A DNA stretch of 64,000 nt from an uncultured Ruficoccus sp. (GTDB taxonomy: Bacteria; Verrucomicrobiota; Verrucomicrobiia; Opitutales; Cerasicoccaceae): assembly GCA_965140785.1 (NCBI GenBank), contig OZ223514.1, forward strand, positions 96,001-160,000, written 5' to 3'. A program made the position numbers and the translations under genes. Shown one piece after another: positions 26,515-43,551 of the stretch. Below the pieces are notes generated by a model. It was not told where the DNA came from and did not search any database. It saw only the letters and a program-made list of their open reading frames with translations. Each line of letters begins with the position of its first letter. Position 1 is the stretch's first letter.

Positions 26515-26631
26515 GGGCTTAAAAGGCAGGCCGTGTCCGCCGCCCGCCCCAGAGGTTCAAGGAAGCACCCTTTACAGCGCGGCTTTTTTTCTCCACAGTG
26601 GGCGGTTTTTAATCACCGACTTTCCCGACCC

Positions 26632-28002
26632 ATGTCCGACGTCCGCGTTAGATTCGCCCCCAGCCCGACGGGCTTCTTCCACATCGGCAGCGCCCGCACC
26701 GCGCTGTTCAACTGGCTCTATGCCCGCCACACCGGCGGCACCTTTGTCCTGCGCATTGAGGACACCGACTCGGTCCGCAATACCCCCGAGGCCCTGCAGG
26801 CGCTGCTCGACGGGATGCGCTGGCTCGGGCTGGACTGGGACGAGGGCCCCGAAAAGGGCGGCGACTTCGGGCCGTACTTTCAGAGTGAGCGCACGGGTAT
26901 TTACGAGGACTACCTCGCCCGCCTCACCGCCGCCGGACGCACCGAGGAGCGCGACGGGGCGGTGTATTTCAAGCTCCAGGGCGAGCGCTACACGGAGTTC
27001 GACAAGTACAAGAACGCCGAACTCGAAAAAGTCCGCAGCGAGCCCGTGGTGGTCGAGGACGCCGTGCGCGGGCGCGTCGAGCGCGTGGTCGATCAGGACT
27101 TCGTCATCCGCCGCAGCAACGGCGACTTCGGCTTCCATTTCGTCAACGTGGTGGATGACCTGTCGATGAAAATCACCCACGTCATCCGCGGCGAGGACCA
27201 CCTCTCCAACACCGCCCGTCACATCGAGCTTTATCAGGCTTTTGGGGCGACCCCGCCGGTCTTTGCCCACATCCCGCTCATCCTCAAAAGCGACGGGCGC
27301 GGCAAAATGAGCAAGCGCGAGTCCGGCGCGTTGATCGAGGAGTACGTCAGCCGCCACTTTCTGGCCCAGGCCGTGCGCAACTACCTATGCCTGCTGGGGT
27401 GGAACCCGAAGGACGACCGCGAGGTCATGCCGATCGAGGAGATTATCGAGCGCTTCGACTTCGCCGGGATCAACAAGGACGGCGCCCGCTTCGACGAGCA
27501 AAAACTCGCCCACATCAACACCGAGTACCTGCGCGCCCTGCCCCTGGAAACCTTTGTCTGGATGTCCGCGCCCGTGCTCGAAAGCGCCGGCCTGATCGGC
27601 GAGGGGACCGACGAGGATTACCTCCAGAGCGTGCTCGCCCTGTGCCAGCCAAAGGCCCGTTCGCTCGAAACCATACCCGAACTGGTCGTGCCGTTTTTCA
27701 AGGACGAGCTCGAAATCGACGGGAAGGCCCGCGAGAAGATTTTCAAGAAGGGCGAGCCGCTGACGCGGCTGGCCGAGCTGATCCCCGCGCTCGAAGCGCT
27801 GGAAACGTGGAACGAGGGGGCGCTGGAGCAGGCCTTTGGCGCGGTGGCCGAGGCCAACAGCCAGAAGCCGACCGCCTACTTCCCGATCTCACGCCTCGCG
27901 GTCAGCGGACAGGGGGGCGGCGTGCCGCTCTTCGGCCTGCTCGAAGCGCTCGGACGCGAGCGTGTGCTCAGCCGCATGCGGGCGTTCGCCGCGGCCAGTT
28001 GA
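26632..28002 (+). CDS. gltX: Glutamate-tRNA ligase
   Basis: [35 protein letters not shown], anticodon-binding domain present. Confidence 0.92.
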
Positions 28003-28057
28003 GCCTGTCCGAGAAATTTGCTGACGGGCGGCAAATATCCCGATCGGCTTTTTTTTA
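28003..28057 (+). terminator. Probable terminator after gltX
   Basis: Interrupted stem (atttgctg/cggcaaat inside agcc/ggct) followed by a T tract. Confidence 0.55.
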
Positions 28058-28082
28058 GGCCGTTATAAATGCGCGGGCAGAC

Positions 28083-28118: not shown

Positions 28119-28535
28119 ATGATGAAAAAAGCTGTTCTCGTTTCCTTCTTTGCTCTGCTGGGTCTTTTTGCGCTGGCAGGGTGCAACACGACGATTAGCG
28201 GCCAGGAAGATGTGGCCGCGTACAACGCTGACCCGTTGAGCATGCAAATTCCCCCCGATGTATCCGGTGAGGTGCTTGAGCGGGCGATGAGGTCAACCTT
28301 CGAAGGACGCCGGTGGACGGTCATTTCCTCCTCTCCCACCAAGGTCACGGCGGTGCTCAACCACCGGGGATTTGAGGGCAAAGCCTCAATGGTTCGCGAG
28401 GGCGACGAGGTGAAGATATATTCGGATTCAACCATGGAGAATTACAAGGACGGTGAAGATGTCGAAGCCGTGCCGCTGGGTTGGCTGGAAAACCTGCAAA
28501 AGGATTTTCCCCGTCGCTTAGCGATGGCCAAGTGA
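28119..28535 (+). CDS. Lipoprotein, probable first gene of the biosynthetic operon
   Basis: Lipobox LAGC; 19 bp gap to the next gene. Confidence 0.8.
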   Translation: MMKKAVLVSFFALLGLFALAGCNTTISGQEDVAAYNADPLSMQIPPDVSGEVLERAMRSTFEGRRWTVISSSPTKVTAVLNHRGFEGKASMVREGDEVKIYSDSTMENYKDGEDVEAVPLGWLENLQKDFPRRLAMAK

Positions 28536-28554
28536 CTCTTTTAGTTTTGATTGT

Positions 28555-29508
28555 ATGCCGGTAACCGTCCGATTTGGGGCGAGCCAGACATGTTTCGACG
28601 CGCGGGCCGGAGTGCTTGCGCTGTCGATGCCCTGGCTGGCCGGTGCGAAAGAGGAACCCCTCTGGCCGGGTGAGCTCACGTCGCTGGGTGACGGCCTGCT
28701 GGCCGGGACGGATGGGCCGTGGCGTTGCCTGGCCCTGAGCGTGCCGGTGGACGGTGCCATGACCGGGACGGCCCGGCGGATTTTTTCAACTCTGCTGGAG
28801 GCACTCGGCCCGGCCCATTTCCTGCGGATCTGGAACTTCGTCCCTGCCATCAATGCGGAGACCGACGGACTGGAAAACTACCGCGCCTTCTGTCTGGGCC
28901 GCCATGAGGCCTTTGCCGCCCATTTCGGGACGGCGGCGGACCGGTATTTCTGCGCTGCCTCGGCGGTCGGGATCGACGGGCCGCACCTGAGCGTGATCGC
29001 CCTGGCCACGGAGTTGCCCGTTACCCACCTGGAAAATCCGTTCCAGTGCCCGGCTTATCAATACCCGCAGCGCTACGGGCCGCGTCCGCCGAGCTTCAGC
29101 CGCGCCAGCGTGGTGGGAGGGGAGGAACCGGCGGTGTACATTTCCGGCACGTCGGCAGTGCTCGGATCGGCCACCGTCGCCCCGGACGAGTTGCACGGGC
29201 AGCTCGAAACCACCGGCGAGAATCTGCACCGCATGCTCGGCCAGTGTGAGCGGGAGCTGGGTGCGGAGCCCTTCGCCCGGCTGGGAGCACCCTTCTGCCG
29301 CGTGTACCTGCGCCGGGCCGGGGACGCGCCCGCTGTCACCGCCTGGCTGGAGACCCAGTCGTGGTTTTCCCCGGAGCGCGCCAGCGTGGTGCGCTCGGAC
29401 ATCTGCCGGCAGGAACTGCGGGTGGAAATCGAGTTATCCTGGCCTTCCGTGCTTGCCGGGAGCGGGGTCGGCGGCAAGGTTCACGCTCATGGCAGCGACC
29501 CGTTATGA
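28555..29508 (+). CDS. Chorismatase (FkbO/Hyg5/XanB2-like)
   Basis: RIWNF, YRAFCLGR, ENPFQCPAYQYP..YGPRPPSFSRA, ISGTSAVLG, DICRQELRVEIE. Confidence 0.85.
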   Translation: MPVTVRFGASQTCFDARAGVLALSMPWLAGAKEEPLWPGELTSLGDGLLAGTDGPWRCLALSVPVDGAMTGTARRIFSTLLEALGPAHFLRIWNFVPAINAETDGLENYRAFCLGRHEAFAAHFGTAADRYFCAASAVGIDGPHLSVIALATELPVTHLENPFQCPAYQYPQRYGPRPPSFSRASVVGGEEPAVYISGTSAVLGSATVAPDELHGQLETTGENLHRMLGQCERELGAEPFARLGAPFCRVYLRRAGDAPAVTAWLETQSWFSPERASVVRSDICRQELRVEIELSWPSVLAGSGVGGKVHAHGSDPL

Positions 29509-30742
29509 TTGTCTGGTGATCGGTGCCGGCCCCGCCGGATCGGCAGCCGCAACCCTGCTGGCGCAGGCCGGTCGGCGTGTGCTCATGGTGGAAAAGGCGG
29601 CCTTCCCCCGCTTCCACATCGGCGAGTCTCTCATCCCGGCGGCCAACCGCGTGCTGCGCAAACTGGGCATGTGGGAACGCATCGAGCGGGCCGGTTTCGT
29701 ACGCAAGGAAGGGGCGGAGTTCACCTACGGCCCCGGCGAAGCGCGGGTCCACAATCGCTTCCGCGACGGCTATGTGCCGGGCTTGGACTATACGTATCAG
29801 GTGGAGCGGGCGAAGTTCGACCAGCTCCTGCTGGAACGGGCCTGCGAGGCCGGGGCGGAGCTGCTTCAGCCCGCCGAGGCGGTGTCCGCCGAGCAAACCG
29901 GGCGCGGCTGGCGCGTCGCGCTGAAGGTGGACGACCGCACCGAAACGGTGGAGGCGGACTGGCTGCTGGACGCCGCCGGACGCGGGCGCTGGTTGGGACG
30001 ACACTTGAACATCCCGACCGATTCGGTCCCGCTGCCGAAGCGTTTCGCCGTTTACAACCATTTCAAGGGCGTGGCCCGGAGTGCGGGGCCCGAGGCGGGC
30101 AACATCGTCATCACACGCATCCCGGGCGGGTGGTTCTGGTCGATCCCGCTCGACGAGGAACGCACCTCGGTCGGGCTGGTTGCCCTTCGCGACGGCGACC
30201 GTACGCCGCCGGAAGAAGTCTTCCGCCAGCGTGTAGCGGCCAACCCCTACATGCGCGCGTGCATGGGCGGTGCCGAGGCGCTGGACCGTTTCCGGGTGGA
30301 GGCCGATTACTCCTTCCTGCACCGGCGCTTCGCCGGGGAGCGCTGGCTGATGCTGGGCGACGCGGCGGGCTTCATCGATCCGGTCTTCTCGTCCGGGGTG
30401 TACCTGGCGCTGGAATCCGCCGACCTGGCCGCGGAGGCCATCCTCTGCGCCAATCCGAAAAAGGGCCTCCGCCCCCGCGCCCAACGCCGCTATCAGGGGC
30501 AGCTTCAGGCGCGAATGCGGGTCATGCTGGCCCTGATCGAAGTCTATTACGACGAGCGCTCCTTCTCGGTCTTCATGAGCCCGACGGAGCGCTACGGCCT
30601 CTTCCCGGCAGTCAATGCCGTGGTGGCGGGCTGCACGCGGATGCCCTTCGGCTTGAAATGGCGCTTCTGGCTCTTTCTGACCATCTGTCGCCTCAATAAG
30701 CGCCTGCCCATGGTGCCGCCGGTCAACCTCGAAGGTGGATGA
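29489..30742 (+). CDS. FAD-dependent halogenase-like oxidoreductase
   Basis: GAGPAG, FPRFHIGESL, GFVRKEGA, WFWSIP, GDAAGFIDPVFSSGV; start ATG 29489. Confidence 0.85.
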   Translation: MAATRYDCLVIGAGPAGSAAATLLAQAGRRVLMVEKAAFPRFHIGESLIPAANRVLRKLGMWERIERAGFVRKEGAEFTYGPGEARVHNRFRDGYVPGLDYTYQVERAKFDQLLLERACEAGAELLQPAEAVSAEQTGRGWRVALKVDDRTETVEADWLLDAAGRGRWLGRHLNIPTDSVPLPKRFAVYNHFKGVARSAGPEAGNIVITRIPGGWFWSIPLDEERTSVGLVALRDGDRTPPEEVFRQRVAANPYMRACMGGAEALDRFRVEADYSFLHRRFAGERWLMLGDAAGFIDPVFSSGVYLALESADLAAEAILCANPKKGLRPRAQRRYQGQLQARMRVMLALIEVYYDERSFSVFMSPTERYGLFPAVNAVVAGCTRMPFGLKWRFWLFLTICRLNKRLPMVPPVNLEGG

Positions 30743-31380
30743 GCACTGAAACGGCATCGCGGCGCTGGGTGCTCTGGACGCTGGCCCTGGTGGGGGCGGG
30801 TGGCCTGTGCTGGGCGCTGGTTCTGTGGGGGGCGGACTGGCGGGCTTTTATCGAGGATCACCCCAAGTCCGGGGCGGCGGTTTTCTGCGGGCTGATGATC
30901 CTGCTGCCGCTGGTGGGGTTTCCGATTTCGGCGTTCTATGTCTTCGCCGGACTGACCTTCCGGGTGCCGGTGGCGCTGGCGGCGGGCGGGGTGGGGCTCG
31001 CCGTGAATATGAGCCTGGGCTACCTGCTGGCGCGTACCATCTGGCGCGAGCCCCTGCGGCGGCGGTTGGAGGCGCGCTGGCCCCGGCTGTTTACCCTGGA
31101 CCGCAACGCCTGCGCCCAGGTGACACTGCTCGTGCGCGCCGTGCCGGGCGTGCCCTTTACCGCGCAGAACTACCTGCTGGGCGTGCTGGCGGTGCCTTTC
31201 GGGTTGTATTTAAGCATTTCCTGGGCCGTGCAGTTTCTCTTCCTCACGGGCGTGGTGCTGACCACGCGTGGCGTGGTGGAGAGCGATGGAGCCCAGGCGC
31301 TGTGGGGCGGGGTGGCGGTGCTGGTCGTGGTGATCAGCCTGCGGCTGGCCTGGCGGCGGTGGAAACGGCGCAGCATTTGA
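30739..31380 (+). CDS. VTT/TVP38 (DedA superfamily) membrane protein
   Basis: GFPIS..AGLTF, RAVPGVPFTAQNYLLG. Confidence 0.8.
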   Translation: MSTETASRRWVLWTLALVGAGGLCWALVLWGADWRAFIEDHPKSGAAVFCGLMILLPLVGFPISAFYVFAGLTFRVPVALAAGGVGLAVNMSLGYLLARTIWREPLRRRLEARWPRLFTLDRNACAQVTLLVRAVPGVPFTAQNYLLGVLAVPFGLYLSISWAVQFLFLTGVVLTTRGVVESDGAQALWGGVAVLVVVISLRLAWRRWKRRSI

Positions 31381-31422
31381 CTTGTGGCTGCTCCTGAGTT
31401 CGCTATTTTTTAGCCGTTACCT

Positions 31423-31689
31423 ATGGGCGAAGATCTTAAAAAACGCTTAAAAACGCTGATCATCGAGGCGTTGTCTCTGGAAGATGTCGAGCCGGACGAT
31501 CTGGCCGACGACACGCCGCTGATGGAGTCCGGGCTCGGCTTGGACTCGATTGACGCCCTCGAACTGGTCGTGACCGTGGAAAAAGAGTTTTCGATCAAGA
31601 TCAAGAACAGCGAAGAGGCCCGCAGTGCCCTGCGCAGCATCGATACCCTGGCGCAATTTATCCGCGAGCGGCAGGCAGCTTCGGCTTGA
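31423..31689 (+). CDS. Acyl carrier protein
   Basis: Acidic 88 aa protein with GLDSIDALEL phosphopantetheine site. Confidence 0.93.
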   Translation: MGEDLKKRLKTLIIEALSLEDVEPDDLADDTPLMESGLGLDSIDALELVVTVEKEFSIKIKNSEEARSALRSIDTLAQFIRERQAASA

Positions 31690-31720
31690 GCCCGCCGGGG
31701 CATGGGCGTAGATTCTCTTT

Positions 31721-32827
31721 ATGGTTAGTCGTGCAGGGAGCTCTCAGGTTTACATCGATGCCTGCGACTGCCTAAGCGTGTTGGGCGATGCCGCCCAAAC
31801 CTGCGAGCGCCTCAAGGCCGGGGAAATCGCCCTTCAGCCCCATCCGGCCCTCGAAACGGACTCCGAAGCGGTGCCATTGGCACTGACGGGGCCTTTTGCG
31901 GCGACCACACCGCCGCGCTGGCTGCAACCATGTCGGGAGTTATTGGATAAAGTCCCGGACGCTCCCTGGGGCACGACGAAGTTTCCCGTCGTCATCTCCA
32001 GCAGTAACTTTGGCATCGATCAGATGCTGGCCGCCTACCAGAGCGGAGACGAGTGCTACCACCAAAACGCCACACCCGCCCATGCGGTGGCGAGCTTGGC
32101 TGAGGCCTGCGGCTGGGGGCCGAACCGCCTCATCGTGTCTAATGCCTGCGTCTCGGCTCAGCTCGCGCTCATCCAGGCGCAGCGACTGCTGGAGGCGGGG
32201 TTGGCCGAGCGGGTGCTGGTTTTCTCCTTCGACTTTCTGAGCGCGTTCGTGGCGGGCGGGTTTTACGCGCTGAAAATCCTCAACACGGATTTTCCCCAGC
32301 CCTACACGCGGCGCGAGACCGGGTCGATCGGCCTCGGAGACGGGGCCGCCTTCGCGGTCCTGAGCCGGACGCCGGGACGGTTCCGGGTGGCCGCCTCGGC
32401 GGCGCTCTCGGAGAATTTCCACATGACCGCCAACGAGACCTCCGGGGCGGGTTTCCGGGGGGTGCTTGAGCGGATCGCCCCGGCTCTGCCGCCGGGCGGC
32501 GTCTGGGTCAAAGGCCATGGCACCGGCACGCTGGAGGCCGGACGGCTGGAGGCCGAGGCCGTGGCCTGGGAACTGCCGGAAAGTCCGCTCGTCTCCTGGA
32601 AGGGCTCGCTGGGCCACACGCTGGGCTCCTGCGGACTGGTTGAGCTGGCCGTGGCTCTGGCAGCCATCCGCACCGGTGAGGCGCCGGGCACGGTCGGCGG
32701 ACAGGCGCCCTTTTTTACCGACAACGTCCACCGCGGAAACTTTCCCCTCGATCGCTTCGGCGGCGTCATCCTTTTAAGCAGCGCCTTCGGTGGCGCCCAA
32801 GCCGCGCACCTCGTCACCTGTGATTAA
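31721..32827 (+). CDS. Beta-ketoacyl-ACP synthase
   Basis: Cys-His-His triad motifs SNACVS, GHGTGT, KGSLGHTLG; SSAFGG. Confidence 0.88.
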   Translation: MVSRAGSSQVYIDACDCLSVLGDAAQTCERLKAGEIALQPHPALETDSEAVPLALTGPFAATTPPRWLQPCRELLDKVPDAPWGTTKFPVVISSSNFGIDQMLAAYQSGDECYHQNATPAHAVASLAEACGWGPNRLIVSNACVSAQLALIQAQRLLEAGLAERVLVFSFDFLSAFVAGGFYALKILNTDFPQPYTRRETGSIGLGDGAAFAVLSRTPGRFRVAASAALSENFHMTANETSGAGFRGVLERIAPALPPGGVWVKGHGTGTLEAGRLEAEAVAWELPESPLVSWKGSLGHTLGSCGLVELAVALAAIRTGEAPGTVGGQAPFFTDNVHRGNFPLDRFGGVILLSSAFGGAQAAHLVTCD

Positions 32828-33482
32828 ACGCTCCATCACCCATCTGGCTGTGGCCGACCCGTGCCGGGAACTCGACCCGGAACGGCGCAAGCACCTGCGC
32901 AAGCTGTTCAACCCGCTGGCCTCCCGGCGGATGAGCGACCTGTCCCTGCTGATCGGCGAAGTGACCGCCGGGGCTGAGCCGGGCCACCGGGACGAGTGGA
33001 TCTACGCCTCGCGCTTCGGGGGGACTCAGAGCCTGGAGCGTTACTTGAGCAGCTTCCCCACGCCCAGTCCGCTGTATTTTCAGAACTCGATCCACCCCGG
33101 CGCGTTCGACTTGGTCAGTGTGGCCCGGCGGGAGCGTTCGGGCATGCTCACGCCTTTGTGCGCGCTGGACACGCTCGTCGCCGACGCCCTGCTGGCGGCG
33201 CTGCTGGTGCCGACGGACACGGTGGCCCACCTGGTCGGTGGAGACGAGTACGAGCCGTGGTCGTCCGGCCACGGTTGGGGGGCGATCGAGACCTTTGCCT
33301 TTTACCTGCGGCTGGAGGCCGGTTCCCCCGCCGCAGCGCTGGGTGAACTGAGCTTTGATCCCGAAGAGCAGACCGGGGAAACCGTTCCGGACGTAGCCGC
33401 TTTTCATGGCGGACTCTCCGCCCGCCGGGACTGGGAGTTCCATCTGCCCGAGCGGGGAACCTTCCGTGTGGCATGGACGTGA
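32820..33482 (+). CDS. Ketosynthase chain-length-factor-like protein
   Basis: RRMS, YASRFG, PSPLYFQNSIH motifs; truncated KS fold without the catalytic triad; GTG start overlapping the KS stop. Confidence 0.78.
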   Translation: MIKRSITHLAVADPCRELDPERRKHLRKLFNPLASRRMSDLSLLIGEVTAGAEPGHRDEWIYASRFGGTQSLERYLSSFPTPSPLYFQNSIHPGAFDLVSVARRERSGMLTPLCALDTLVADALLAALLVPTDTVAHLVGGDEYEPWSSGHGWGAIETFAFYLRLEAGSPAAALGELSFDPEEQTGETVPDVAAFHGGLSARRDWEFHLPERGTFRVAWT

Positions 33483-34369
33483 AAGCCCCCAGGAACCCCG
33501 GTCCCTCGGGCGGCTACTCCTTTATCTCGGCCTGTGACCGCACGCTGCCGCGCTGGCTGTTCGCGTCCATCATGGACACTGGGACGCTGGTGGCGTTCGC
33601 CCTGATGAAGACGCAGCGCCGGTATTCGCGCGAGTACCTGGAGGCGATCCTCAAGCGTCCGGTGAACCGACGGGACAGCTTCAGGCACTTCCGCGCCTTG
33701 GCTGACATGCTCATGCTCAAGCTGCGGGCCGGGCGCGGCGAGCCGGTGCCCATCCAGTGGGCGGATGAGGAAAACCGCCTGTGCGGTAGCCTCATTCACG
33801 GCGAAGAGCCGATCCTGCTGGGGACTTTTCACGTCGGGGCCTCGGACCTGCTCGGCTTCGGGCTGGAGCAGTTTGACCGGCCTATCTGCATGGTGCGCCA
33901 GCGGGTGGGCAATTCCGGGGATATCGACCGGCTGGTGCGGCAAAGCTCCTCTCAGGTCGAGGTCATGTGGGTCAACGCCGAGAACGAGATCATCTTTGGG
34001 CTGAAGGAAGCGCTGGAGGCGGGCAAGACCCTCGCCCTGCAATGCGACCGGCTGGAACACACCTCGAAGACCGCGGCCTTCGACTTTCTGGGGGCGCGGC
34101 GGCAGTTCCCGGTCACCATTTACCGGCTCGCCGCGCTCTACCGGCGCCCGGTCCTCTTCTGCCTGGCCCTGCCCGCCTCCGAAGGGGCGGGCTACCGGGT
34201 GCATACCTGTCGCCCCTTCGTCCCTGCCGGGCGCAGCCGCCGGGAGGACATCCGGGCCGGGCGGGAGCACTTTCAGGGCGTGTTGATTTGGCTGGAGGAA
34301 CACTTGCGCCGTCACCCCTTTCAGTGGTTTAATTTCTTACCCCTGAATCCGCCCGAATCCCCCTCCTGA
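33473..34369 (+). CDS. LpxL-like acyltransferase
   Basis: FHVGASD, LQCDR, FDFLG, HPFQWFNF. Confidence 0.8.
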   Translation: MDVKAPRNPGPSGGYSFISACDRTLPRWLFASIMDTGTLVAFALMKTQRRYSREYLEAILKRPVNRRDSFRHFRALADMLMLKLRAGRGEPVPIQWADEENRLCGSLIHGEEPILLGTFHVGASDLLGFGLEQFDRPICMVRQRVGNSGDIDRLVRQSSSQVEVMWVNAENEIIFGLKEALEAGKTLALQCDRLEHTSKTAAFDFLGARRQFPVTIYRLAALYRRPVLFCLALPASEGAGYRVHTCRPFVPAGRSRREDIRAGREHFQGVLIWLEEHLRRHPFQWFNFLPLNPPESPS

Positions 34370-34376
34370 TCCTCCG

Positions 34377-35159
34377 GTGCCCAACCTTTCTCCAAAAACC
34401 AAATCCGGCGCGTCTTCCCGCTACTGGCGGTATCTCGCGATGGTGATCCTGTTCGGGCTCTGGACCCTCGCGCTGAACCTCCTGTGTGCGATCGTTCTGC
34501 TGCTGGGGCTGGAAAAACGGCGGCCCGGCCGGGTGCGCCGTCTCCTGGCCGACTCCATGGGACGCTACACGCGGCTGCTCGCATGGACCGGGGTGGGGCG
34601 GGTACGCTTTGGTGACCTGCGCGCACGGCTCCCGGAGGGCCCCTGCCTGATCGTGGCCAACCACACCGGGCTGCTCGACGCGCTCTTTCTCATGGTTGAG
34701 CTGCCCCAGATGGTGTGTGTGTTCAAGTCCGACCTGCGGCGTAACCCGTTTTTCCGCTACATGGTCAGGGAGGGGGGCTTCATCGCCAACGACGATGGGT
34801 TGGAGTCCCTTCACGCGATGGAGAAGGCGCTGGACGCGGGCCGCCAGGTGCTGGTCTTTCCCGAGGGGACGCGCACGGTCGATCCGCCGCTGAATCGCTT
34901 CAAGGCCGGGTTCGCCTGGGTGGCCAAAAAGACGCGTGCCCCCGTCTGCGCCGTGCTCATCCGCAACCCGTCCGGCCTGCTGTGCAAGCGCGGCGGGTTC
35001 CTTTACCGCTATCACTTCCCCTTTACCTGCGAGTATCGATTTTTGGATACATTCCGCCCGGGTGAGGACGAGGCGCCCCCCGCCTTCGCCCGGCGGCTGG
35101 AGAACGTTTATCGCGAAGAGCTCGCCAAGGAGGACTTTTCCCAATGGCCGCCCCGATAG
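34377..35159 (+). CDS. Lysophospholipid (PlsC-like) acyltransferase
   Basis: ANHTGLLD and FPEGTR motifs. Confidence 0.88.
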   Translation: MPNLSPKTKSGASSRYWRYLAMVILFGLWTLALNLLCAIVLLLGLEKRRPGRVRRLLADSMGRYTRLLAWTGVGRVRFGDLRARLPEGPCLIVANHTGLLDALFLMVELPQMVCVFKSDLRRNPFFRYMVREGGFIANDDGLESLHAMEKALDAGRQVLVFPEGTRTVDPPLNRFKAGFAWVAKKTRAPVCAVLIRNPSGLLCKRGGFLYRYHFPFTCEYRFLDTFRPGEDEAPPAFARRLENVYREELAKEDFSQWPPR

Positions 35160-35443
35160 TCGAACACATCACCGTAACCGAGCGCAATGGCTGCTGCGAG
35201 GGGCACTTCCCGGGGCACCCCATCGTCCCGGCGGCGGCGCAGGTGCAGTGGGCGCTGGTCGCACTGGCGCGCGAAACAGGCACGAGCCAGCGCTGGGAGT
35301 TGCGCCAGGGGAAATTCCTGCGCGAGCTGCCGCCGGGGCGAACGGTGGAGCTGCGCCTGAACCCGGAGAAACGCGGCTGGCGCGCACAGGTGATTGACGC
35401 GCAGGGGGCCTATGCGGATATGCTGTGGGTGCCGCATGAATAA
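35144..35443 (+). CDS. Hotdog-fold dehydratase (ApeI-like)
   Basis: GHFPGHPIVP, KFLRELPPG. Confidence 0.78.
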   Translation: MAAPIVEHITVTERNGCCEGHFPGHPIVPAAAQVQWALVALARETGTSQRWELRQGKFLRELPPGRTVELRLNPEKRGWRAQVIDAQGAYADMLWVPHE

Positions 35444-36212
35444 CGCCACCACCCACGTGCTCGTCCTGCCCTCGTATAATACCGGGCCCATTCTTGAGCG
35501 CACCGTGCGCGAGGCTTTGCGACACTGGCAGCCGCTCTGGCTCTTTATCGACGGCTCGACCGACGGGGCGCACGCGGTCTTTTTGCAAGAGCCGGAAGCG
35601 TGGCCGGGGCTGCGGGTCTTTGTCAGTGACACCAACCGTGGCAAGGGCGCGACTGCGGCCTGGGCGGCGGATGAGGCGGCGCGGGGGGGCTTCACCCACC
35701 TGCTGCTCATGGACGCCGATGGGCAGCACCCCGCCGATTGTGTCCCGGCCCTGATGGAGCTTTCGCAAAAGCAGCCGGAGGCGCTCGTCATGGGGCAGCC
35801 GGACTTCGGCCCGGACGCGCCCTGGGTGCGGCTGGCCGGTCGGCAGCTCAGCATCGGGCTGACGCAGTTCGAGACGCTTTGGGGCGGGCTGGCCGATCCG
35901 CTCTTCGGTATGCGGGTGTATCCGGTCGAGCCGCTGCGGCGCGTGCTGGCGCAGACGAGCTTCGCCCGCCGCTACGACTTCGACCCGGAGGTGGCGGTGC
36001 GGCTGTTCTGGGCCGGGGTGCCGCCGGTGGCCCATCGGGTCCCGGTGCGTTACGTATCCGCCGAGGAGGGCGGAGTGAGCCACTTTCACTATCTGCGTGA
36101 CAACGCCTTTATGGTCTGGCTCCATATCAGACTCCTGCTCGCGTTTTTTCCACGATGCTTTTCCGTCGCCCGACTCAGCCGCCGCTTTCGCCGTCAACGC
36201 GACGGTGCGTGA
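35436..36212 (+). CDS. Glycosyltransferase family 2
   Basis: PSYN, DGSTDG, NRGKG, MDADGQH, FGMRVYP, SHFHYLRDN. Confidence 0.9.
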   Translation: MNNATTHVLVLPSYNTGPILERTVREALRHWQPLWLFIDGSTDGAHAVFLQEPEAWPGLRVFVSDTNRGKGATAAWAADEAARGGFTHLLLMDADGQHPADCVPALMELSQKQPEALVMGQPDFGPDAPWVRLAGRQLSIGLTQFETLWGGLADPLFGMRVYPVEPLRRVLAQTSFARRYDFDPEVAVRLFWAGVPPVAHRVPVRYVSAEEGGVSHFHYLRDNAFMVWLHIRLLLAFFPRCFSVARLSRRFRRQRDGA

Positions 36213-36859
36213 GCTTCCTGTTGCTGGGGGCGGTGCTGCTGGGCGCTTCCGCCCGGGCTGAAAAAACCACCACCGCGCTGGACTCGCCGCCGGTGGATAA
36301 ACAAACCTCCGCCTCGCCAGATTCTTCCGTCCCCGACTCCGCTGCCTCGCTGAAGGCCCTAGCCTGGCCGGACGGCGACCAGGTGGCGCGGGTGTCCTTC
36401 ACCGAGGAGCGGCAATTTCCGTTTCGCCGCTTCCCCAAGCGCTTCAGCGGCACGCTCGATCGCTCGCCCGAGGGCGAGCTGATCCTGGCCTACACGCAGC
36501 CCAACCGCGAGCGCCTGCTCCTGCTGAAGGACGGGATCTACTTCGAGGACAGCGAGGGGCAGCGCCGCAAACTGCCCGCCGAGGCCGGTTATGTGCGCGT
36601 GCTGCGCGACCTGATCGGCGGCGACCAGGAGGCGCTGCGGCAGGACTGGCGAACGGAGCCGCGGCCGGACGGCTTCGCCCTCTACCCGAAATCCCCGCAG
36701 ATGGACCGTGCGCTCAAGCGGGTCGAGGTCACGGTGGACGAGGGCCGGGTGCGCACGGTGCAGGTTTTTCTCAGTGACGGGGTGGAGCGCCGCTACAGTT
36801 TCGGTCCGCTGAGCTGGGTGCCCCCGGCGCAGTTCGGCCAACCCCCGCCGCAGCCATGA
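36209..36859 (+). CDS. LolA-like periplasmic lipid carrier
   Basis: Signal peptide; FTEER..FSGTL..YTQP beta-strand pattern; operon context next to MMPL. Confidence 0.7.
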   Translation: MSFLLLGAVLLGASARAEKTTTALDSPPVDKQTSASPDSSVPDSAASLKALAWPDGDQVARVSFTEERQFPFRRFPKRFSGTLDRSPEGELILAYTQPNRERLLLLKDGIYFEDSEGQRRKLPAEAGYVRVLRDLIGGDQEALRQDWRTEPRPDGFALYPKSPQMDRALKRVEVTVDEGRVRTVQVFLSDGVERRYSFGPLSWVPPAQFGQPPPQP

Positions 36860-39186
36860 GCGGGGAAAAAGCCAGTCCCGCCCGCCGCGTGCTGACCGTG
36901 GCCATGGCCGCGCTTGTGCTGCTGGTCCTCCCGGCGCTTTACCTGCTGACGCGTGACTGGCATCGTGCGCTCAACGAGGACATCCGCGCCTCCATCCCCG
37001 AACTGGCCGAGTCGCCCCAGGCGCGAAAAATCCGGCAGGAGCTTCAGGGACAGGCCACCAACAGCGTGCTGCTCAAGGTCACCGTGCCGGGCGCGGAAAC
37101 GGACACCGTCCGCGCAGCCATCCGCGAAGCCGCCGCCGCGCAACCGGTTTGGGGCCAGGTGTTTTTCCCGGGTGACACGGATGCCATGAAAGAGCTGGGC
37201 CGCTTCATCTACGAGCACCGCGAAACACTCTTCGCGCCCGGCTGGCTGCAAGTTCACTGGCAACGCTTTCAGACCACCGGCCAGCCGCCGGCGGATTTTT
37301 CCAGTTGGCTGGCGCGGCAGACGGTGGCTGAGTTGGACGCCTTTCTCAGCCGATCCGAGGCGACCGCCTACAGCGAGCTGATCCCGAAGGACCCCTGGCT
37401 GCTCATCCCGCAGGCGCGTGAGGCCCTGCCCGAGACCACGATGAGCGACAGTGACGCCGTGCTGGCCTGGCTGCCGGCGCAGGTGGATGCCCTCAGCCCT
37501 GCCGGGCAGCAGGAGATCGCCCGCTCGCTCAGTACGCTGGAGGATGCCCTGCGCCAGCGCTGGCCGCAGGCGCGGATCGAGAGTGGCGGGGTTTATGAAA
37601 TCGCCGAGCGGACCGAGGCGCTGACCCGCCGGGTGGTCATGATGATGAATGTCTACATGGGGCTGGCGATCTTTCTGCTGCTGGCGCTGCTCCTGCGGCG
37701 CGTGGCGAACCTCCTGCTGGTGTTGATCCCGCTGGCGGCGGCTGTGCTGTGCTCGACCGCGGCGGGGCTGCTTGTTTTTGGGGAGATCCACGCGCTTGCT
37801 CTGGGGATTGCCAGCGTGGTGTTGGGGCTGGCGGTGGACTACACCGTGCACCTGGTGGCCAACCGTCAGGGAAGCGAGCCGCTGGCCGCCTGGCGGCGTA
37901 TTCGAAAACCACTACTGGCCGGCTGCCTCTCCTCGTGCCTGGGTCTGTTCTTTCTGTGGCTGGCTCCGCTCCCGGCCATCCGGCAGGTCGGGCTGATGGT
38001 GCCCGCCGGGCTGCTCGCCGCGCTGGCGGCGGTGCGCTGGATCCTGCCCTACCTGTTGCCGGGCGGGGACGAGGCTCCGCTGCGCAAGCCGCTTTACCTG
38101 AACCGTAAGCGTCCCGTTGCCCGCGTCTGGTTCTGCCTGCCGCTGGCCCTGTGGCTCGGCGCATCGCTCGTGCTGGCCGTCAGCCTGAGTTTCGACGACG
38201 AGATCGACAGCTATCAGATTCCGGTCGGCGGTGCCATGGAGCGCTATCAGGAACTGCTCAAAGAGTTCGGGCAAGGCCGGGAGGAGATCCAGAGCCGGTG
38301 GTTTACCTTCGCGGACTCGCCGGTGGCGCTGCTCGAAAACCTCAACCAGGTGCGCGCCCAGGGCGTGGAGCTGGCCGGTCCGGCCTCGCTGCTGGGGCGG
38401 GCGCAGGGCAGCGAAGCGTGGGCGGTGTTCAAGCCGCAGCGCGAGGCTTATGGCGCGGCGCTATTGGAGGAGCTTGAGGCGCAGGGTTTCGAGGCGGATG
38501 CCTTTGAGGATTTTACCGAGAGCCTGGAGGAACTGCCGGAGCAGGTTGCTGACCCGGCGGCGGATGCGGCGATCCGCGAACTGGCCGGACGCTTGCAGGG
38601 CCCCCTGCGAGGGGCGCTGATGACGGACGGGACGAACTGGGTCGGCACCTTCGGGGTCAAGGACCGGGTGCGCGTGCCCCCCGCGCTGGAGGAAACCGCC
38701 CATGTGCTGGATGAACGGGTGGAGCTCAATCACGCCCTGGCCGCGTCGCGGCGCGTGGTCCTGCGCAACGCCCTGTGGGGCATCCTTGTTGTGGGGGCTG
38801 TGCTCTGCGGCGTTTTCGGCTGGCGGCAGGGGTTGGCCGTGGCGTTACTGCCGGTGTGGGCGGTCACGCTCGGGCTGGCCGTGACGCTGATGTTGACGAA
38901 TGGCCTCAGCCTGCTGGCCGTGATTGGCGCGGTGCTGGCCTATTGCCTCGGATTGGACTACGGGGCCTTTGCCGTGCATTTTCGCGGGCAGGCGCCGGTC
39001 TCCGTCCGGGTGTCGGCGCTGACGACGGCGAGCGCGTTCGCGGTGCTGGCCTTCAGCCCGATCAAGGCCGTCGGCGACCTGGGGATCGTGGTGGCCGCTT
39101 CGGTTCTGTTTGCCTGGCTGGGGGCCGAACTCCTGGGGTTGCCACGGCGCGGCTCCTCCGCGCAAGATGACGTGAACGATGTCTGA
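36856..39186 (+). CDS. MMPL/RND-family lipid exporter
   Basis: Two TM bundles with GLAVDY and LGLDYG motifs and two periplasmic loops. Confidence 0.85.
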   Translation: MSGEKASPARRVLTVAMAALVLLVLPALYLLTRDWHRALNEDIRASIPELAESPQARKIRQELQGQATNSVLLKVTVPGAETDTVRAAIREAAAAQPVWGQVFFPGDTDAMKELGRFIYEHRETLFAPGWLQVHWQRFQTTGQPPADFSSWLARQTVAELDAFLSRSEATAYSELIPKDPWLLIPQAREALPETTMSDSDAVLAWLPAQVDALSPAGQQEIARSLSTLEDALRQRWPQARIESGGVYEIAERTEALTRRVVMMMNVYMGLAIFLLLALLLRRVANLLLVLIPLAAAVLCSTAAGLLVFGEIHALALGIASVVLGLAVDYTVHLVANRQGSEPLAAWRRIRKPLLAGCLSSCLGLFFLWLAPLPAIRQVGLMVPAGLLAALAAVRWILPYLLPGGDEAPLRKPLYLNRKRPVARVWFCLPLALWLGASLVLAVSLSFDDEIDSYQIPVGGAMERYQELLKEFGQGREEIQSRWFTFADSPVALLENLNQVRAQGVELAGPASLLGRAQGSEAWAVFKPQREAYGAALLEELEAQGFEADAFEDFTESLEELPEQVADPAADAAIRELAGRLQGPLRGALMTDGTNWVGTFGVKDRVRVPPALEETAHVLDERVELNHALAASRRVVLRNALWGILVVGAVLCGVFGWRQGLAVALLPVWAVTLGLAVTLMLTNGLSLLAVIGAVLAYCLGLDYGAFAVHFRGQAPVSVRVSALTTASAFAVLAFSPIKAVGDLGIVVAASVLFAWLGAELLGLPRRGSSAQDDVNDV

Positions 39187-39598
39187 GCCTTTCCCATCTG
39201 TCGAGGAGTTGATCCCGCATCGCGGCCCGATGTGCCTGCTGCGGCGTATCCTCGCGCTCGATGAGTCCTCGGTGATGGCGGAGACCGTGATTGAGCCGGG
39301 GGCGGTCATTTTAAACTCCGCCCCAGGGACGCAGGCCTGGTCGATCGAGATTGTTGCTCAGGCTGCTGCGGCGTTCATCGGCTGGCATCACCGCGAGCGC
39401 GGCTGGCGTTCGGGCCGCCTGATCAAGGTCGCCCGCTGGGAGATGCTCTCGGGTTCGTTGCCGCTCGGTGAGCCGTTGAAGGTGTATTCAAAACTGGATA
39501 CGTGGAGCGAAACCGGTGTTTTCCGCTTCGAGGGTAAACTGGAAAGCCCGACCGGCGCGCGGCTCGCCGGCGGGCAATTGACCATCCTCGCCTCATGA
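39179..39598 (+). CDS. Hotdog-fold dehydratase (ApeP-like)
   Basis: LIPHRGPMCLL, IEIVAQAAAA. Confidence 0.8.
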   Translation: MSEPFPSVEELIPHRGPMCLLRRILALDESSVMAETVIEPGAVILNSAPGTQAWSIEIVAQAAAAFIGWHHRERGWRSGRLIKVARWEMLSGSLPLGEPLKVYSKLDTWSETGVFRFEGKLESPTGARLAGGQLTILAS

Positions 39599-40938
39599 GC
39601 CGCGACCCCGACAACGCGCCCCTGCAAGCGGCCTGGGAGCGGGTCCGCGAGCGTCTGGCGGATCGACCCGCCGTGATGGATGCGGCCACGGGCGGGACGG
39701 TGAATTTTGCCGAGCTGGAACAACTCGCCCGTGCCTGGGAGGAACGCCTGCGCCCCTACGCCTTGCGGCGGCGGGCGGTGACGATGCGCCTGCCCAACGG
39801 CGCGGAGTGGCTGGCGGCTTTTCTCGCCCTGCGCCGGGCGGGGGCAGTTGTTGCCCCTCTCGACCGCGCCGCGCCGTCGGAGGAACTGACCGTGGCCAAC
39901 GCATTGCTGGACACGGTGCTGGAGGTGACCGAGGCGGGTATACGGGCCATGCCGGGCCAGCGCCGCTGGAAGCGTGACCTCGCGCTGGTCAAGTTGACCT
40001 CCGGCTCGACCGGCGCGCCCAAGCCGATCGCCTTTAACGAGTCGGAGCTGTACGCCGACGCGGCCAACATTCTGGCGACGATGGGCTTTGACGGGCGCGA
40101 TACGAATTTCGCGCTCCTGCCCTTCGCGCATTCCTACGCGCTGGGGAATCTGGTGGTGCCACTGCTGGCGCATGGCGTGCCGGTGGCAATCGGCAGCGGA
40201 GCTTTTCCCCACGTGATCGCCGAGGAGGTGGCCCGCAGTGGGGCGACCGTGCTGCCCACCGTTCCGGCGGTGCTGGAGGGATTGGCCCGGGCCGGGGAGA
40301 TTTCCCTCGCCCCCTTGCGGCTGATTATCTCGGCGGCGGCGCCGCTGTCGCCGGATCTGGCTAAACGTTTCTACGCGGCGACGGGGCTGCGCGTGCACAA
40401 TTTTTACGGTTCCAGCGAGACGGGCGGCATCGCCTATGACCGCGACGGCCGGGCCGGGCTGAGTGGCGAATCGGTCGGGACGGCCATGGACGGCGTCCGG
40501 CTGGAAAGAACGCCCGAGGGTCGCCTGCGGGTGATCTCGGCCGCCGTCAGCGGCTACGGGCGTCGCCGGGACAAGGGCCGGGCGGCCATTGTTTTGGCCG
40601 ATCAGGTGAGCTTCCGCGAAGGGGGCGCCCTGGTCATCCATGGCCGGGCGGACCGGATCGTGAAATGCGCGGGCGTGCGGCTCGACTTGACGCGGGTGGA
40701 GCAGGTGGCCGTGAGCGACAAAGAGGTGCGGCAGGCGGCGGCCTTTTATGAGCCCAGGGGCGAACGGGTCTTTCTGGCCTACGCGGGAAACCTCGGGCCG
40801 GAGGCGATGTTACTCGGATTAAAGGCCGCTTTCCCCCGGCTGGGGCGTCGGCTGCACGCCCGCCGCTTGGAGGCCCTGCCGCTCACCGCTCGTGGGAAAA
40901 TCGACCTGCGAGCCCTGCGCCGGGCGCTGGTGGATTGA
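39595..40938 (+). CDS. AMP-binding acyl/aryl-CoA(ACP) ligase
   Basis: LTSGSTGAPK, FYGSSETGG, GRADRIVK, TARGKID. Confidence 0.9.
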   Translation: MSRDPDNAPLQAAWERVRERLADRPAVMDAATGGTVNFAELEQLARAWEERLRPYALRRRAVTMRLPNGAEWLAAFLALRRAGAVVAPLDRAAPSEELTVANALLDTVLEVTEAGIRAMPGQRRWKRDLALVKLTSGSTGAPKPIAFNESELYADAANILATMGFDGRDTNFALLPFAHSYALGNLVVPLLAHGVPVAIGSGAFPHVIAEEVARSGATVLPTVPAVLEGLARAGEISLAPLRLIISAAAPLSPDLAKRFYAATGLRVHNFYGSSETGGIAYDRDGRAGLSGESVGTAMDGVRLERTPEGRLRVISAAVSGYGRRRDKGRAAIVLADQVSFREGGALVIHGRADRIVKCAGVRLDLTRVEQVAVSDKEVRQAAAFYEPRGERVFLAYAGNLGPEAMLLGLKAAFPRLGRRLHARRLEALPLTARGKIDLRALRRALVD

Positions 40939-41049: not shown

Positions 41050-41847
41050 TCAGCAGTACCGGCGCCGGAGCAGCGCGAGGGCGAGGGTGCTGATACCACC
41101 AAGAGCCGCCCAGGTGGAGGGCTCCGGCACGAGGTAAAAGGCACCCACTGCGTCGAGGTCGAAGCCCGCGCTGCCGCTCGTGGGGTAGGGGTCGTAAATG
41201 ACGTGCCCGTCGGAATCGTATTCGCTGCCGTCGCCGATCACGTCCACGATCCGGACGTACCCGATGCTGTTCAGGTCGAGAAATTCATACCCGTCCTGAC
41301 CGGCCAGGTCCGACAGGTCAAAGGGGGTGCCGTAGCCGCCCCGGTACTTGCCCGCGAAGCCGTCGATATCGGTCGCGTCCACATTTCCGAAGGCACCCAC
41401 CGGGCCCTCGGTCAGGCTGTGGGTGGCAAAGCGCACGAAGTTCTCCCCGTCGCTGGAGACCTCGACGTAGCCGAGCTCCAGAAAGGTATCGCTAAAGCTG
41501 TTTTCGAAGATGGCAAAGTCGTAGCCGTCCCCGTTGTAGAGGGCGTTATCAAAGGTCAGCGTGATCGATCCTCCCCGCCCGACGCAGACGATGCTGTTGT
41601 CGACGGTGCCGAGCCCGTGGTCCGGTGTCTGATAGGAGGCGGTGACGTTGGTGCCCGGGGAATACTCGTACCCGCTGGCCCAGCCGACGAAGTCCGAGCT
41701 GGTCTTGTTGATGGCCGTGGTATCGACGGAGCCGACCGGACCGGCGTAAATACCGGCACTCAGCGTGGAGGCGGTGGCTAGTAGAATACCAAAGGCTGCG
41801 CCTGTGCGCAGTTGCGGGAAGTTCAGGTGATGTCTTTCTAATGGCAT
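41050..41847 (-). CDS. PEP-CTERM surface protein
   Basis: Signal peptide; [18 protein letters not shown]-terminal [12 protein letters not shown]...LLRRR. Confidence 0.88.
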
Positions 41848-42008: not shown

Positions 42009-43551
42009 ATGAGTAAATGGGCGCTAATTTCGGTCAGCGATAAAACCGGCCTCGTGGATTTTGCGAAGGGCCTCGTCGAGCAGCACGGCTACGGCATTCT
42101 CTCCACCGGGGGGACGGCCAAGCTCCTGCGGGAGCACGGGCTCCCCGTCACGGATGTGAGCGAGTACACGGGCTTCCCCGAGATGATGGAGGGCCGGATC
42201 AAGACCCTGCACCCGAAGGTCCACGGCGGCCTGCTGTGCCGCCGCGACAAGGACGACCACCTCGCCCAGGCCAAGGAGCACGGCATCGACATGATCGACC
42301 TGGTCTGCGTCAACTTGTACCCCTTCGAGGAAACCGTCGCCCGCCGCGACTGCACCTTTGAGGAAGCCATTGAGAACATCGACATCGGCGGCCCCTCCAT
42401 GCTCCGCAGTGCGGCCAAGAACCACGCCAGCGTGACCGTGGTCTGTGACGCGGCGGACTACACGCCCGTGCTGGAGGCTCTCGCCACCGGCGGCGACGCG
42501 CTGACGATCCTGCGCCGCAAGCTCGCCCTCAAGGTTTTCCAACGCACCTCCTCCTACGACGGGGCCATCGCCACCTATCTGGAGGGCCAGGTCTCCGAGG
42601 GCGCGAACATCGGCTTGCCCGAGCGCCTGAGCCTGGAAATGCCGCTGGCGCAAAAGCTGCGCTACGGCGAGAACCCGCACCAGCAGGCCGCGCTCTACGG
42701 GCGCTTCCACGAGTGCTTCGAGCAGCTTCAGGGCAAGGAACTTTCCTACAACAACATCATCGACATCACCGCCGCCACTTACCTGATCGGCGAGTTTGAG
42801 AAGCCCACCGTGGCCATCCTCAAGCACACCAATCCCTGCGGCGTGGCCAGCGAGATGGAACTCATCACGTGCTGGGAACAGGCCTTCGAGACAGACAAGC
42901 AGGCGCCCTTCGGCGGCATCATCGTGACCAACCGCACCATCGACGCCGACCTGGCCAAGACCATTGCCGGCATCTTCTGCGAGGTCATCATCGCCCCCGA
43001 GTTTACGCCCGAGGCGCGCGAGATTTTTTGGCAAAAAGAAAAACCTGCGCCTGATGATCGCCCGCGATTACCTCGGGGCCGATTCGCTTCAGGAGGTCAA
43101 GTCCGTCGTCGGCGGTTTCCTGCTCCAGGACCGCGACCAGTACCCGGACAAGCCCGCCGACTGGAAGGTCGTGACCGAGCGCCAGCCCACCGAGGAGGAA
43201 TGGGCCGCCCTGCGCTTTGGCTGGAAAGTCGTCAAGCACGTCAAGTCCAACGCTATCGTGTACGCCTCCGCCGAGCGCACGCTGGGCATCGGCGCCGGGC
43301 AGATGAGCCGCGTGGACAGCTCGCAGATCGCCGTGTGGAAGGCGGGCGAAGCCGGCCTCTCGCTCAAGGGCTCCATCGTCGCCTCCGACGCGTTCTTCCC
43401 CTTCCCCGACGGCCTCATCGCCGCCGCCGAGGCCGGGGCCACCGCCGCCATCCAGCCGGGCGGCTCCGTCCGCGACGAGGAGGTCATCAAGGCCGCCAAC
43501 GAACGCGGCCTGGCCATGGTCTTCACCGGCAAACGGCACTTTAAGCACTAA
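42009..43551 (+). CDS. purH: Bifunctional AICAR transformylase/IMP cyclohydrolase (frameshift at T/A runs ~43025-43043)
   Basis: [55 protein letters not shown]. Confidence 0.95.

Follow-up and report, generated by a model that had tools for sequence, protein, structure and literature searches.

A predicted aryl-polyene-type operon without a cluster ketoreductase in Opitutales

A 64-kb window of DNA from an uncultured Ruficoccus sp. of the order Opitutales (Verrucomicrobiota) carries an operon of 15 genes at positions 28119-40938. The window is positions 96001-160000 of one contig (OZ223514.1; G000:C43:96001-160000) in a 4.36-Mb genome of 50 contigs, and all coordinates given without a contig name are counted within it. 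Homology identifies the operon as a divergent, Opitutales-specific variant of the aryl-polyene (APE)/xanthomonadin family of gene clusters. It lacks one defining feature of that family, a ketoreductase (KR) encoded in the cluster, together with several accessory genes. In our judgement the operon quite probably encodes a type II polyketide/fatty-acid-like pathway to an APE-type outer-membrane lipid, and the predicted pigment lipid is probably halogenated. Only in lacking a KR does the operon truly depart from the known toolkit, a point that an earlier note on this DNA had overlooked.

APE lipids are products of one of the most widespread families of bacterial gene clusters and protect against oxidative stress. 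To our knowledge, all characterised examples come from Proteobacteria or Bacteroidota, and each has its own KR.

Fifteen intact genes form a compact operon

The operon consists of 15 open reading frames (ORFs; g01-g15), all on the + strand and without internal stops. Ten of the 14 gene junctions overlap, by 4-58 nt with the starts chosen here, and at the remaining junctions the genes are 7, 19, 31, and 42 nt apart. The genes are mostly translationally coupled. Each ORF aligns nearly end to end with its orthologues in related genomes, so no frameshifts are evident. The earlier note had described 15 co-oriented, mostly overlapping, unbroken genes, and this description holds. It had also named a toolkit of chorismatase, acyl carrier protein (ACP), ketosynthase (KS) with chain length factor (CLF), paired hotdog dehydratases, acyltransferases, GT2 glycosyltransferase, LolA-like carrier, MMPL exporter, and AMP-ligase. 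Each of these functions was recovered, as was a flavin halogenase.

Operon proteins match the steps of aryl-polyene lipid synthesis

Operon proteins were compared with Pfam and NCBIfam, with the PDB, and, by blastp and hhalign, with the ape cluster of E. coli CFT073.

Two genes are predicted to make and load an aryl starter unit. g02 (28555-29508) is a chorismatase of the FkbO/Hyg5/XanB2 family (PF21168, E 2e-21, 76.7 bits). It matches Hyg5 (5ag3, E 2.8e-32) and FkbO (4bps, E 3.9e-27) in the PDB and reaches 162 bits on TIGR04444, under the cut-off of 325. Whether such an enzyme makes 3-hydroxybenzoate, 4-hydroxybenzoate, or both cannot be read from its sequence; for chorismatases, product type is reported not to be predictable in this way (PMC3949708). 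g15 (39595-40938) resembles aryl-acid AMP-ligases or ACP loaders of the ApeH/XanA2/ArcT type (PF00501, E 5.5e-39; ApeH by blastp, E 8.4e-12). The predicted acceptor, g05 (31423-31689), is an ApeE-type ACP (PP-binding, E 1.6e-9) with 48% identity to E. coli ApeE (blastp, E 7.6e-21) and 67.9 bits on NF006617, where the cut-off is 70.

g06 (31721-32827) is an ApeO-type KS. Its best NCBIfam model is NF006618, on which it reaches 106.9 bits (cut-off 407) and E. coli ApeO reaches 555. The best PDB matches are 7f28_B (E 2.2e-16) and 6qsp_A (E 1.9e-15), which are the ApeO proteins of A. baumannii and Xenorhabdus, while ApeR (7f27) is matched at 3e-8 (PMC8358021) and FabF at 1e-10 or weaker. By blastp, g06 is 32% identical to E. 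coli ApeO (E 1e-20) and matches ApeR at 7e-6. Cys143, His234, and His266 are unchanged across 15 orthologues. The next gene, g07 (32820-33482), encodes a putative half-size CLF-like KS partner of 220 aa, of the ApeC or Lysobacter ORF16 type. It reaches 22 bits on PF13723, for which the cut-off is 25, and 11 of its 24 orthologues match this model, at best with E 6.5e-6; E. coli ApeC scores 225 bits. A g07-type gene always lies immediately 3' of the KS gene and is adjacent to it in all 14 loci fetched from relatives. The predicted KS and CLF pairing thus depends on best matches and on gene position, and the curated cut-offs are not reached.

Two genes encode hotdog dehydratase subunits. The small subunit g10 (35144-35443, 99 aa) is of the ApeI type (blastp, E 1.7e-5), with weak matches to PKS_DH_N (E 1.3e-3) and FabZ (E 4.7e-3). 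g14 (39179-39598) is of the ApeP type, scoring above the cut-off on the ApeP-like model PF22817 (E 3.9e-8, 33.5 bits, cut-off 27) and matching ApeP by blastp (E 8.5e-11).

g03 (29489-30742) is a predicted flavin-dependent halogenase of the phenol/pyrrole class with carrier-protein-bound substrates (Trp_halogenase, E 1.3e-30). Its ten best PDB matches are halogenases (8zop at 4.8e-61, ChlB4, PltA, CmlS, and Bmp2-type enzymes) or the unnamed flavoprotein/dehydrogenase 3nix, and a geranylgeranyl-type reductase is matched at 3e-13 only. A GWFWSIP stretch (W-x-W-x-I-P) and Lys73 line up with the halogenase templates; we take both to be marks of halogenases.

Lipid attachment may be served by three genes. 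g09 (34377-35159) is a PlsC/lysophospholipid acyltransferase of the ApeD type (PF01553, E 4e-19; 30% identity to ApeD, blastp E 9e-17). g08 (33473-34369), an LpxL-like (lipid A-type) acyltransferase (PF03279, E 2.4e-5), is the counterpart of the C-terminal half of ApeJ, whose residues 425-546 it matches by blastp (E 1.4e-5). The N-terminal half of ApeJ is represented by the GT2 glycosyltransferase g11 (35436-36212; PF00535, E 2.1e-13), which is 34% identical to residues 8-241 (blastp, E 6e-39). The best NCBIfam match of g11 is the polyprenyl-phospho-GalNAc synthase PpgS at 6.7e-6, far under its cut-off.

Three further proteins resemble export components. g13 (36856-39186) is an MMPL/RND-type exporter of the ApeM type (PF03176, E 1.9e-10), aligned with ApeM across 750 residues (blastp, E 5.5e-30). 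g12 (36155-36859; alternative start GTG at 36209) is a predicted secreted carrier with a LolA fold. The Pfam and NCBIfam scans gave no family match for it; hhalign matched E. coli ApeL with 94% probability (E 1.4e-7). Its AlphaFold2 model has a pLDDT of 77.5 overall and above 85 over most of residues 70-230, and Foldseek returned LolA proteins as the top matches (best E 4.2e-10, TM 0.82 to the target). g01 (28119-28535) encodes a lipoprotein with a signal peptide and an LAGC lipobox. It too has no match in the Pfam and NCBIfam scans, and an alignment of ten orthologues matched E. coli ApeA by hhalign (95.4% probability, E 1.9e-8, 114 columns). The model of g01 (pLDDT 87.9) is an alpha+beta domain. 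Foldseek gave no match for it at E 0.001 or better, and VIA-align gave a best Z of 8.7, to the BamC N-domain and lipid-binding KA1 domains, which is within the range for unmatched models and not decisive. We know of no assigned function for E. coli ApeA.

The remaining gene, g04 (30739-31380), encodes a VTT/DedA-family membrane protein (PF09335, E 1.1e-8, 36 bits, cut-off 33.9), with an equivalent at the same position in 10 of 14 relatives' loci. It was considered as an ApeG equivalent and rejected (hhalign probability 0.06%).

Relationship to characterised clusters

For 12 of its 15 genes, the operon has an equivalent in the APE cluster of E. coli CFT073. These are ApeA, C, D, E, H, I, J, L, M, O, and P, where the single protein ApeJ corresponds to two operon genes, g11 and g08. 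Ligase, ACP, KS/CLF, heterodimeric dehydratase, lipid attachment, and MMPL/LolA export are common to the operon and to the APE clusters of E. coli, Xenorhabdus, and Acinetobacter. Identities to the E. coli proteins are low, at 22-48% in the pairs detected by BLAST, and g07 and g12 are linked to theirs by profile comparison only. The operon adds the chorismatase, the halogenase, and the DedA/VTT gene, and it lacks ApeB (methyltransferase), ApeF (second ACP), ApeG, ApeK (thioesterase), ApeN, ApeQ (KR), and ApeR (second KS). In the E. coli deletion series the apeR mutant retains the main APE lipid (PMC8253772). Galactosamine-phosphate-glycerol is reported as the head group of an APE lipid (bioRxiv 10.1101/2020.12.19.423268).

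The xanthomonadin-type references were the Xanthomonas pig/xan genes, the arc cluster of Azoarcus sp. BH72, which makes arcuflavin, and the "sunscreen" cluster of L. enzymogenes (ORF1-17); likeness to these rests on family assignments and published gene tables, not on alignments. Like them, the operon has an in-cluster XanB2/Hyg5-family chorismatase and a flavin halogenase (PMC3949708, PMC3691225, PMC6859482). The operon and these references also share an AMP-ligase, one dedicated ACP, one KS paired with a half-size CLF, a pair of hotdog dehydratases, GT2, phospholipid-type acyltransferases, a LolA-like carrier, and an exporter. In Lysobacter and Azoarcus, too, one KS is accompanied by a half-size CLF (PMC3691225, PMC3949708). 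KS, half-size CLF, KR, and ACP are all required in Lysobacter (PMC3691225), and the Azoarcus chorismatase ArcB and ligase ArcT have been assayed (PMC3949708). The main difference is the KR: XanH/FabG3, ArcH, and Lysobacter ORF13 are present, and required where tested, whereas the operon has none. The operon is also single and compact, whereas the references occupy two loci or seven transcription units, and it has the DedA/VTT gene and the ApeA-like lipoprotein as extras.

A proposed pathway

We propose the following pathway. g02 would convert chorismate to 3- and/or 4-hydroxybenzoate (step 1), which the AMP-ligase g15 would load onto the ACP g05 (step 2). The KS g06 with its half-size partner g07 would extend the primed carrier by malonyl units (step 3). 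Each beta-keto group formed would be reduced by a reductase from outside the cluster, most simply the housekeeping FabG (step 4), and the g10/g14 hotdog pair would dehydrate the product, so that a conjugated polyene grows (step 5). g03 is predicted to chlorinate or brominate the ring (step 6); its nearest solved relatives act on carrier-bound phenols and pyrroles. g09, g08, and g11 may then place the chain on a glycerol/sugar-phosphate lipid anchor (step 7), and the pump g13, the carrier g12, and the lipoprotein g01 would move the lipid to the outer membrane (step 8). g04 may aid flipping of a lipid or polyprenyl-phosphate intermediate. The homologies support a hydroxybenzoate-primed, possibly halogenated acyl chain on a (glyco)lipid exported to the outer membrane, as the earlier note had suggested. 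By analogy with APE and xanthomonadin, the likely role would be protection from oxidative and light damage.

The cluster is conserved across Opitutales

Synteny across Opitutales, one of the checks that the earlier note had proposed, showed the cluster to be conserved and collinear. With a KS orthologue threshold of E <1e-90, 15 of 40 relatives carry the KS: three of four in the same genus, eight of 11 elsewhere in the family, and four of 25 in the order's other families. An eight-gene core (ACP, KS, CLF, LpxL-like, PlsC, GT2, MMPL, and AMP-ligase) is collinear in all 14 fetched loci. All 15 genes are collinear in four of the 14, and elsewhere the lipoprotein, chorismatase, and halogenase genes are missing or moved. 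Identity among detected cluster homologues is 30-86%, except that the most distant locus has two proteins at 22-24%. This conservation of a cluster without its own KR argues that the KR-less form is functional.

Wider searches placed the KS in Verrucomicrobiota. A scan of a genome collection gave 294 KS relatives, of which the best 80 were assigned by record title. Of these 80, 78 carry titles of Verrucomicrobiota or taxa within it and two read "bacterium" only. They include Cerasicoccus arenae, C. maritimus, C. frondis, Pelagicoccus sp., Opitutus, Lacunisphaera, Nibricoccus, Oleiharenicola, and Didemnitutus, among others; "Verrucomicrobiota bacterium JB024" comes nearest, at 82%. In a protein search, the matches listed all have at least 51% identity, and all the named ones are Verrucomicrobial. 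Among 200 genomes drawn evenly from the phylum, 12 have an orthologue at E 1e-60 or better; all are Opitutales, with ten of 15 genomes positive in one family and two of 17 in another.

A second KS, like FabF or ApeR, is present in 52 of the 80 related loci, mostly in Opitutaceae, and some of these add another ACP, another halogenase, or a UbiE-type methyltransferase. The cluster of the source genome's family has no second KS. Extra genes occur at four more distant Opitutales loci (L017:257-4999, L018:182-1714, L014:12401-15004, and L019:9636-12002). Between them, these loci have a second KS and ACP, an opposite-strand second Trp_halogenase-type gene, a UbiE-type methyltransferase, and a PAP2/polysaccharide-deacetylase fusion, with small outer-membrane beta-barrel and PagL-like genes close by.

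The cultured carriers are Cerasicoccus arenae KCTC 12870, C. maritimus NBRC 105382, C. frondis NBRC 105381, and Pelagicoccus sp. SDUM812002. The Pelagicoccus strain is the most completely equipped of the four, with the lipoprotein, a chorismatase, two halogenase matches, and a second KS. g04-g15 are present at the loci of C. arenae (L026), C. maritimus (L025), and C. frondis (L027). Chorismatase, halogenase, and ApeA-like genes are absent from these three loci within the DNA examined around the KS, namely 10 kb on each side in C. arenae and, upstream, 9.2 kb in C. frondis and 2.8 kb (to the contig end) in C. maritimus. The starter unit in these three strains would therefore come from elsewhere.

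The missing ketoreductase and alternative explanations

Several observations weigh against an APE-type product, among them those on the KR. No counterpart of ApeQ, XanH (FabG3), ArcH, or ORF13 is found among the 15 genes by Pfam or NCBIfam. The 64-kb window has no short-chain dehydrogenase/reductase (SDR) gene at all; a genome search with a FabG model gave 22 SDR stretches, every one outside the window. Nor is an SDR found among 36 ORFs scanned on either side of the cluster at the loci of ten relatives. Tblastn with E. coli ApeQ detects a similar gene within 10 kb of the KS at just one of 80 related loci; as a control, this query matches 14 stretches in the source genome. TIGR01831, the model for APE-type KRs (cut-off 338.85; 474.7 for E. 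coli ApeQ), finds nothing above the cut-off in the source genome or in the 15 cluster-bearing relatives. The sole TIGR01831 match at E 1e-55 or better in these relatives scores 211-239 bits, under the cut-off, and adjoins fabF in six that were compared by position, as expected of a housekeeping fabG. In Xanthomonas, the cluster KR FabG3/XanH is essential although FabG1 is present (PMC6859482), and for this reason the supply of a KR in trans is an assumption.

Divergence and the other absent genes count on the same side. Thioesterase, methyltransferase, second KS, and second ACP are absent from the cluster, as are counterparts of ApeG and ApeN (DUF3261). Tblastn of the whole genome found no match to ApeB, ApeN, or ApeG and one weak match to ApeK, elsewhere on contig C10. 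Nearly all NCBIfam scores of the operon proteins are far under the curated cut-offs, and by this measure the proteins are divergent from known family members. The CLF assignment of g07 is weak, with an hhalign probability to ApeC of 51% (E 1.6e-4) and a PDB match to 7f28_A at E 0.99 only. The KS was also placed in a quick maximum-likelihood tree of 51 rows, built from every third sequence (27 of 80 first KSs and 17 of 49 second KSs). A branch with an SH-aLRT of 96 parts FabF, ApeR, and the second-KS types from E. coli ApeO and the Opitutales KS clade. The stem of the Opitutales clade is very long, at 4.48 changes per column, and E. coli ApeO and ApeR are the only characterised references; they are so few because the searches listed Verrucomicrobial relatives and no named proteobacterial ones.

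Two candidate suppliers of the missing functions were considered and rejected. The SDR paralogues most like ApeQ after the housekeeping FabG (C18:53697 and C43:161667) are found at E 1e-50 or better in four and six of the 40 relatives, with none in Cerasicoccus, a distribution unlike that of the cluster, so neither qualifies as a co-distributed KR acting in trans. A triad of ACP, FabA-like dehydratase, and KS on C10 was rejected as a cluster-specific source of KS and ACP, since it is present with or without the cluster. Its KS shares 49-52% identity with the second KS that Opitutaceae carry inside the cluster and is the sole close relative of that enzyme in the genome. Of 40 relatives, 26 have orthologues of the triad, among them 14 with no cluster, and two relatives (G019 and G036) have both the triad and the in-cluster second KS. 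The triad itself (G000:C10:513083-515265; L105:9083-11265) is a compact operon and a conserved, unexplained second fatty-acid-like system in Opitutales.

Two side observations concern ketoreductases. The housekeeping fabG beside fabF in the source genome (G000:C34:156693-157417) is read in two frames, the N-terminal 140 residues in one and the remainder in the other. The switch lies near 157105 in runs of G and looks like a homopolymer sequencing or assembly error, not a real loss. TIGR01831 exceeds its cut-off in one of 41 genomes, G017, where a canonical-looking APE trio (G017:C4:143623-146770) consists of a KS 31% identical to g06, a KR scoring 360 bits on TIGR01831, and another KS. G017 has this trio without the Opitutales-type cluster, which argues for two types of APE cluster within the order.

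If the housekeeping FabG, and possibly the enoyl reductase, did part of the processing, the pathway could instead end in an omega-aryl fatty acyl lipid with a chain that is saturated or unsaturated in part. Such a lipid might or might not be halogenated and need not be coloured. The clade-wide absence of a dedicated KR and the distance of the KS clade from ApeO (32% identity, long stem) fit such an aryl-capped lipid. So does the identity of the named cultured carriers, which are Cerasicoccus species and one Pelagicoccus strain; Cerasicoccus is described as pale pink, not yellow. We nevertheless consider a product that is not a fully conjugated polyene unlikely. The cluster retains the ApeI/ApeP-type dehydratase pair, which is specific to polyene-forming systems, and it has no enoyl reductase. 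In addition, an Opitutales isolate bearing an "arylpolyene" cluster, which may or may not be of the operon's type, turns yellow in colony (PMC12193912). The loss of KR, thioesterase, and a second KS and ACP could also mean that the cluster is a remnant, decaying or silent, whose product is no longer made; this seems extremely improbable. Several genes of the E. coli set are indeed absent. Yet all 15 genes are intact, the KS catalytic Cys and His are unchanged in 15 orthologues, and the KR-less layout is collinear across families of the order, in hundreds of genomes, a degree of order-wide conservation not expected of a dead cluster.

Flexirubin and arcuflavin are made with the same toolkit, and dialkylresorcinol (DAR) genes may sit at a separate locus (PMC3949708). 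The operon could accordingly supply a polyene that is esterified to a DAR from elsewhere in the genome. No DarA/DarB-like or tyrosine ammonia-lyase gene was found among the 15 genes or the scanned flanking ORFs, the whole genome not having been searched for DAR, and the cluster has its own lipid-anchoring acyltransferases and GT2. We regard a hybrid of this kind as very unlikely, and an APE-type outer-membrane lipid remains the favoured product.

Genomic setting

The operon lies 3' of gltX (26533-28002, + strand). On its other side, a PEP-CTERM protein gene (41050-41847, - strand) is convergent to it, and purH (42009-43544, + strand) follows. The borders had been described as the gltX terminator and a convergent PEP-CTERM gene. 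The second stands. At the first, a terminator consensus scan found no site between 28002 and 28119, and there is a weak hairpin followed by a T run at about 28050-28058, between gltX and g01. Terminator-like sites in the region number 11 against 12.4 expected, and the terminator and promoter scans showed no enrichment. A GC-rich hairpin lies 3' of g15. The GC content of the cluster is 0.65-0.68, and that of most of the window 0.58-0.66.

The cluster sits between gltX and purH in the source genome and in two others of the genus (G002 and G003). In a further member, G001, about 6 kb separates gltX from purH (G001:C1:247095-255786), and the cluster is about 180 kb off (G001:C1:433744-446567). The cluster therefore moves as a block.

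Some 12 kb downstream of the operon, at 52885-54516, the window encodes a 543-aa protein that reaches 537 bits on NF009025 and so exceeds the curated cut-off of 505. Its C-terminal half is a lipid kinase of the YegS/BmrU type; the gene belongs to lipid metabolism, and a link to the cluster is not evident.

Discussion

The earlier note had ranked this operon as the best candidate for an undescribed system, which overstates the case. Because 12 of the 15 genes have APE counterparts and the chorismatase, halogenase, and KS/CLF are of the xanthomonadin/arcuflavin type, the operon is better described as a variant of a known system. Genes for a chorismatase and a halogenase are established in those pathways (PMC3949708, PMC3691225), and "arylpolyene" calls in Opitutales are in print (PMC8277422, PMC12193912). 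antiSMASH reported such clusters in bins of Cephalotes ant gut symbionts (PMC8277422) and in Congregicoccus parvus ASA1, whose whitish-yellow colonies turn yellow and whose clusters have <1% similarity to known ones (PMC12193912). That low similarity fits the divergence of the operon. The clusters belong to the same order and the same predicted class and are likened here by description, not by orthology. In their available portions, the two papers count the clusters without analysing gene content, the KR gap, or the product. The earlier note knew of no characterised product of this type from the lineage, and our full-text literature searches likewise found no characterised APE product from Verrucomicrobiota.

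A bolder interpretation is that Opitutales hold an anciently diverged APE branch which dispenses with a dedicated KR, a thioesterase, and, in the source family, an initiating KS, and which borrows FabG. Its product might be a halogenated aryl-polyene or a partly reduced aryl glycolipid new to all phyla, with the DedA/VTT protein and the ApeA-like lipoprotein as new export parts. We offer this only as a speculation, and a rather doubtful one.

No new kind of biology is implied, and specialists would anticipate clusters like this one among Gram-negative phyla. If the favoured explanation is true, a conserved reductase-less form in Opitutales shows how far the pathway can rely on the enzymes of primary fatty-acid synthesis. 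The cultured carriers make the operon directly testable, and it would give the first product of the APE class from Verrucomicrobiota, possibly a halogenated one.

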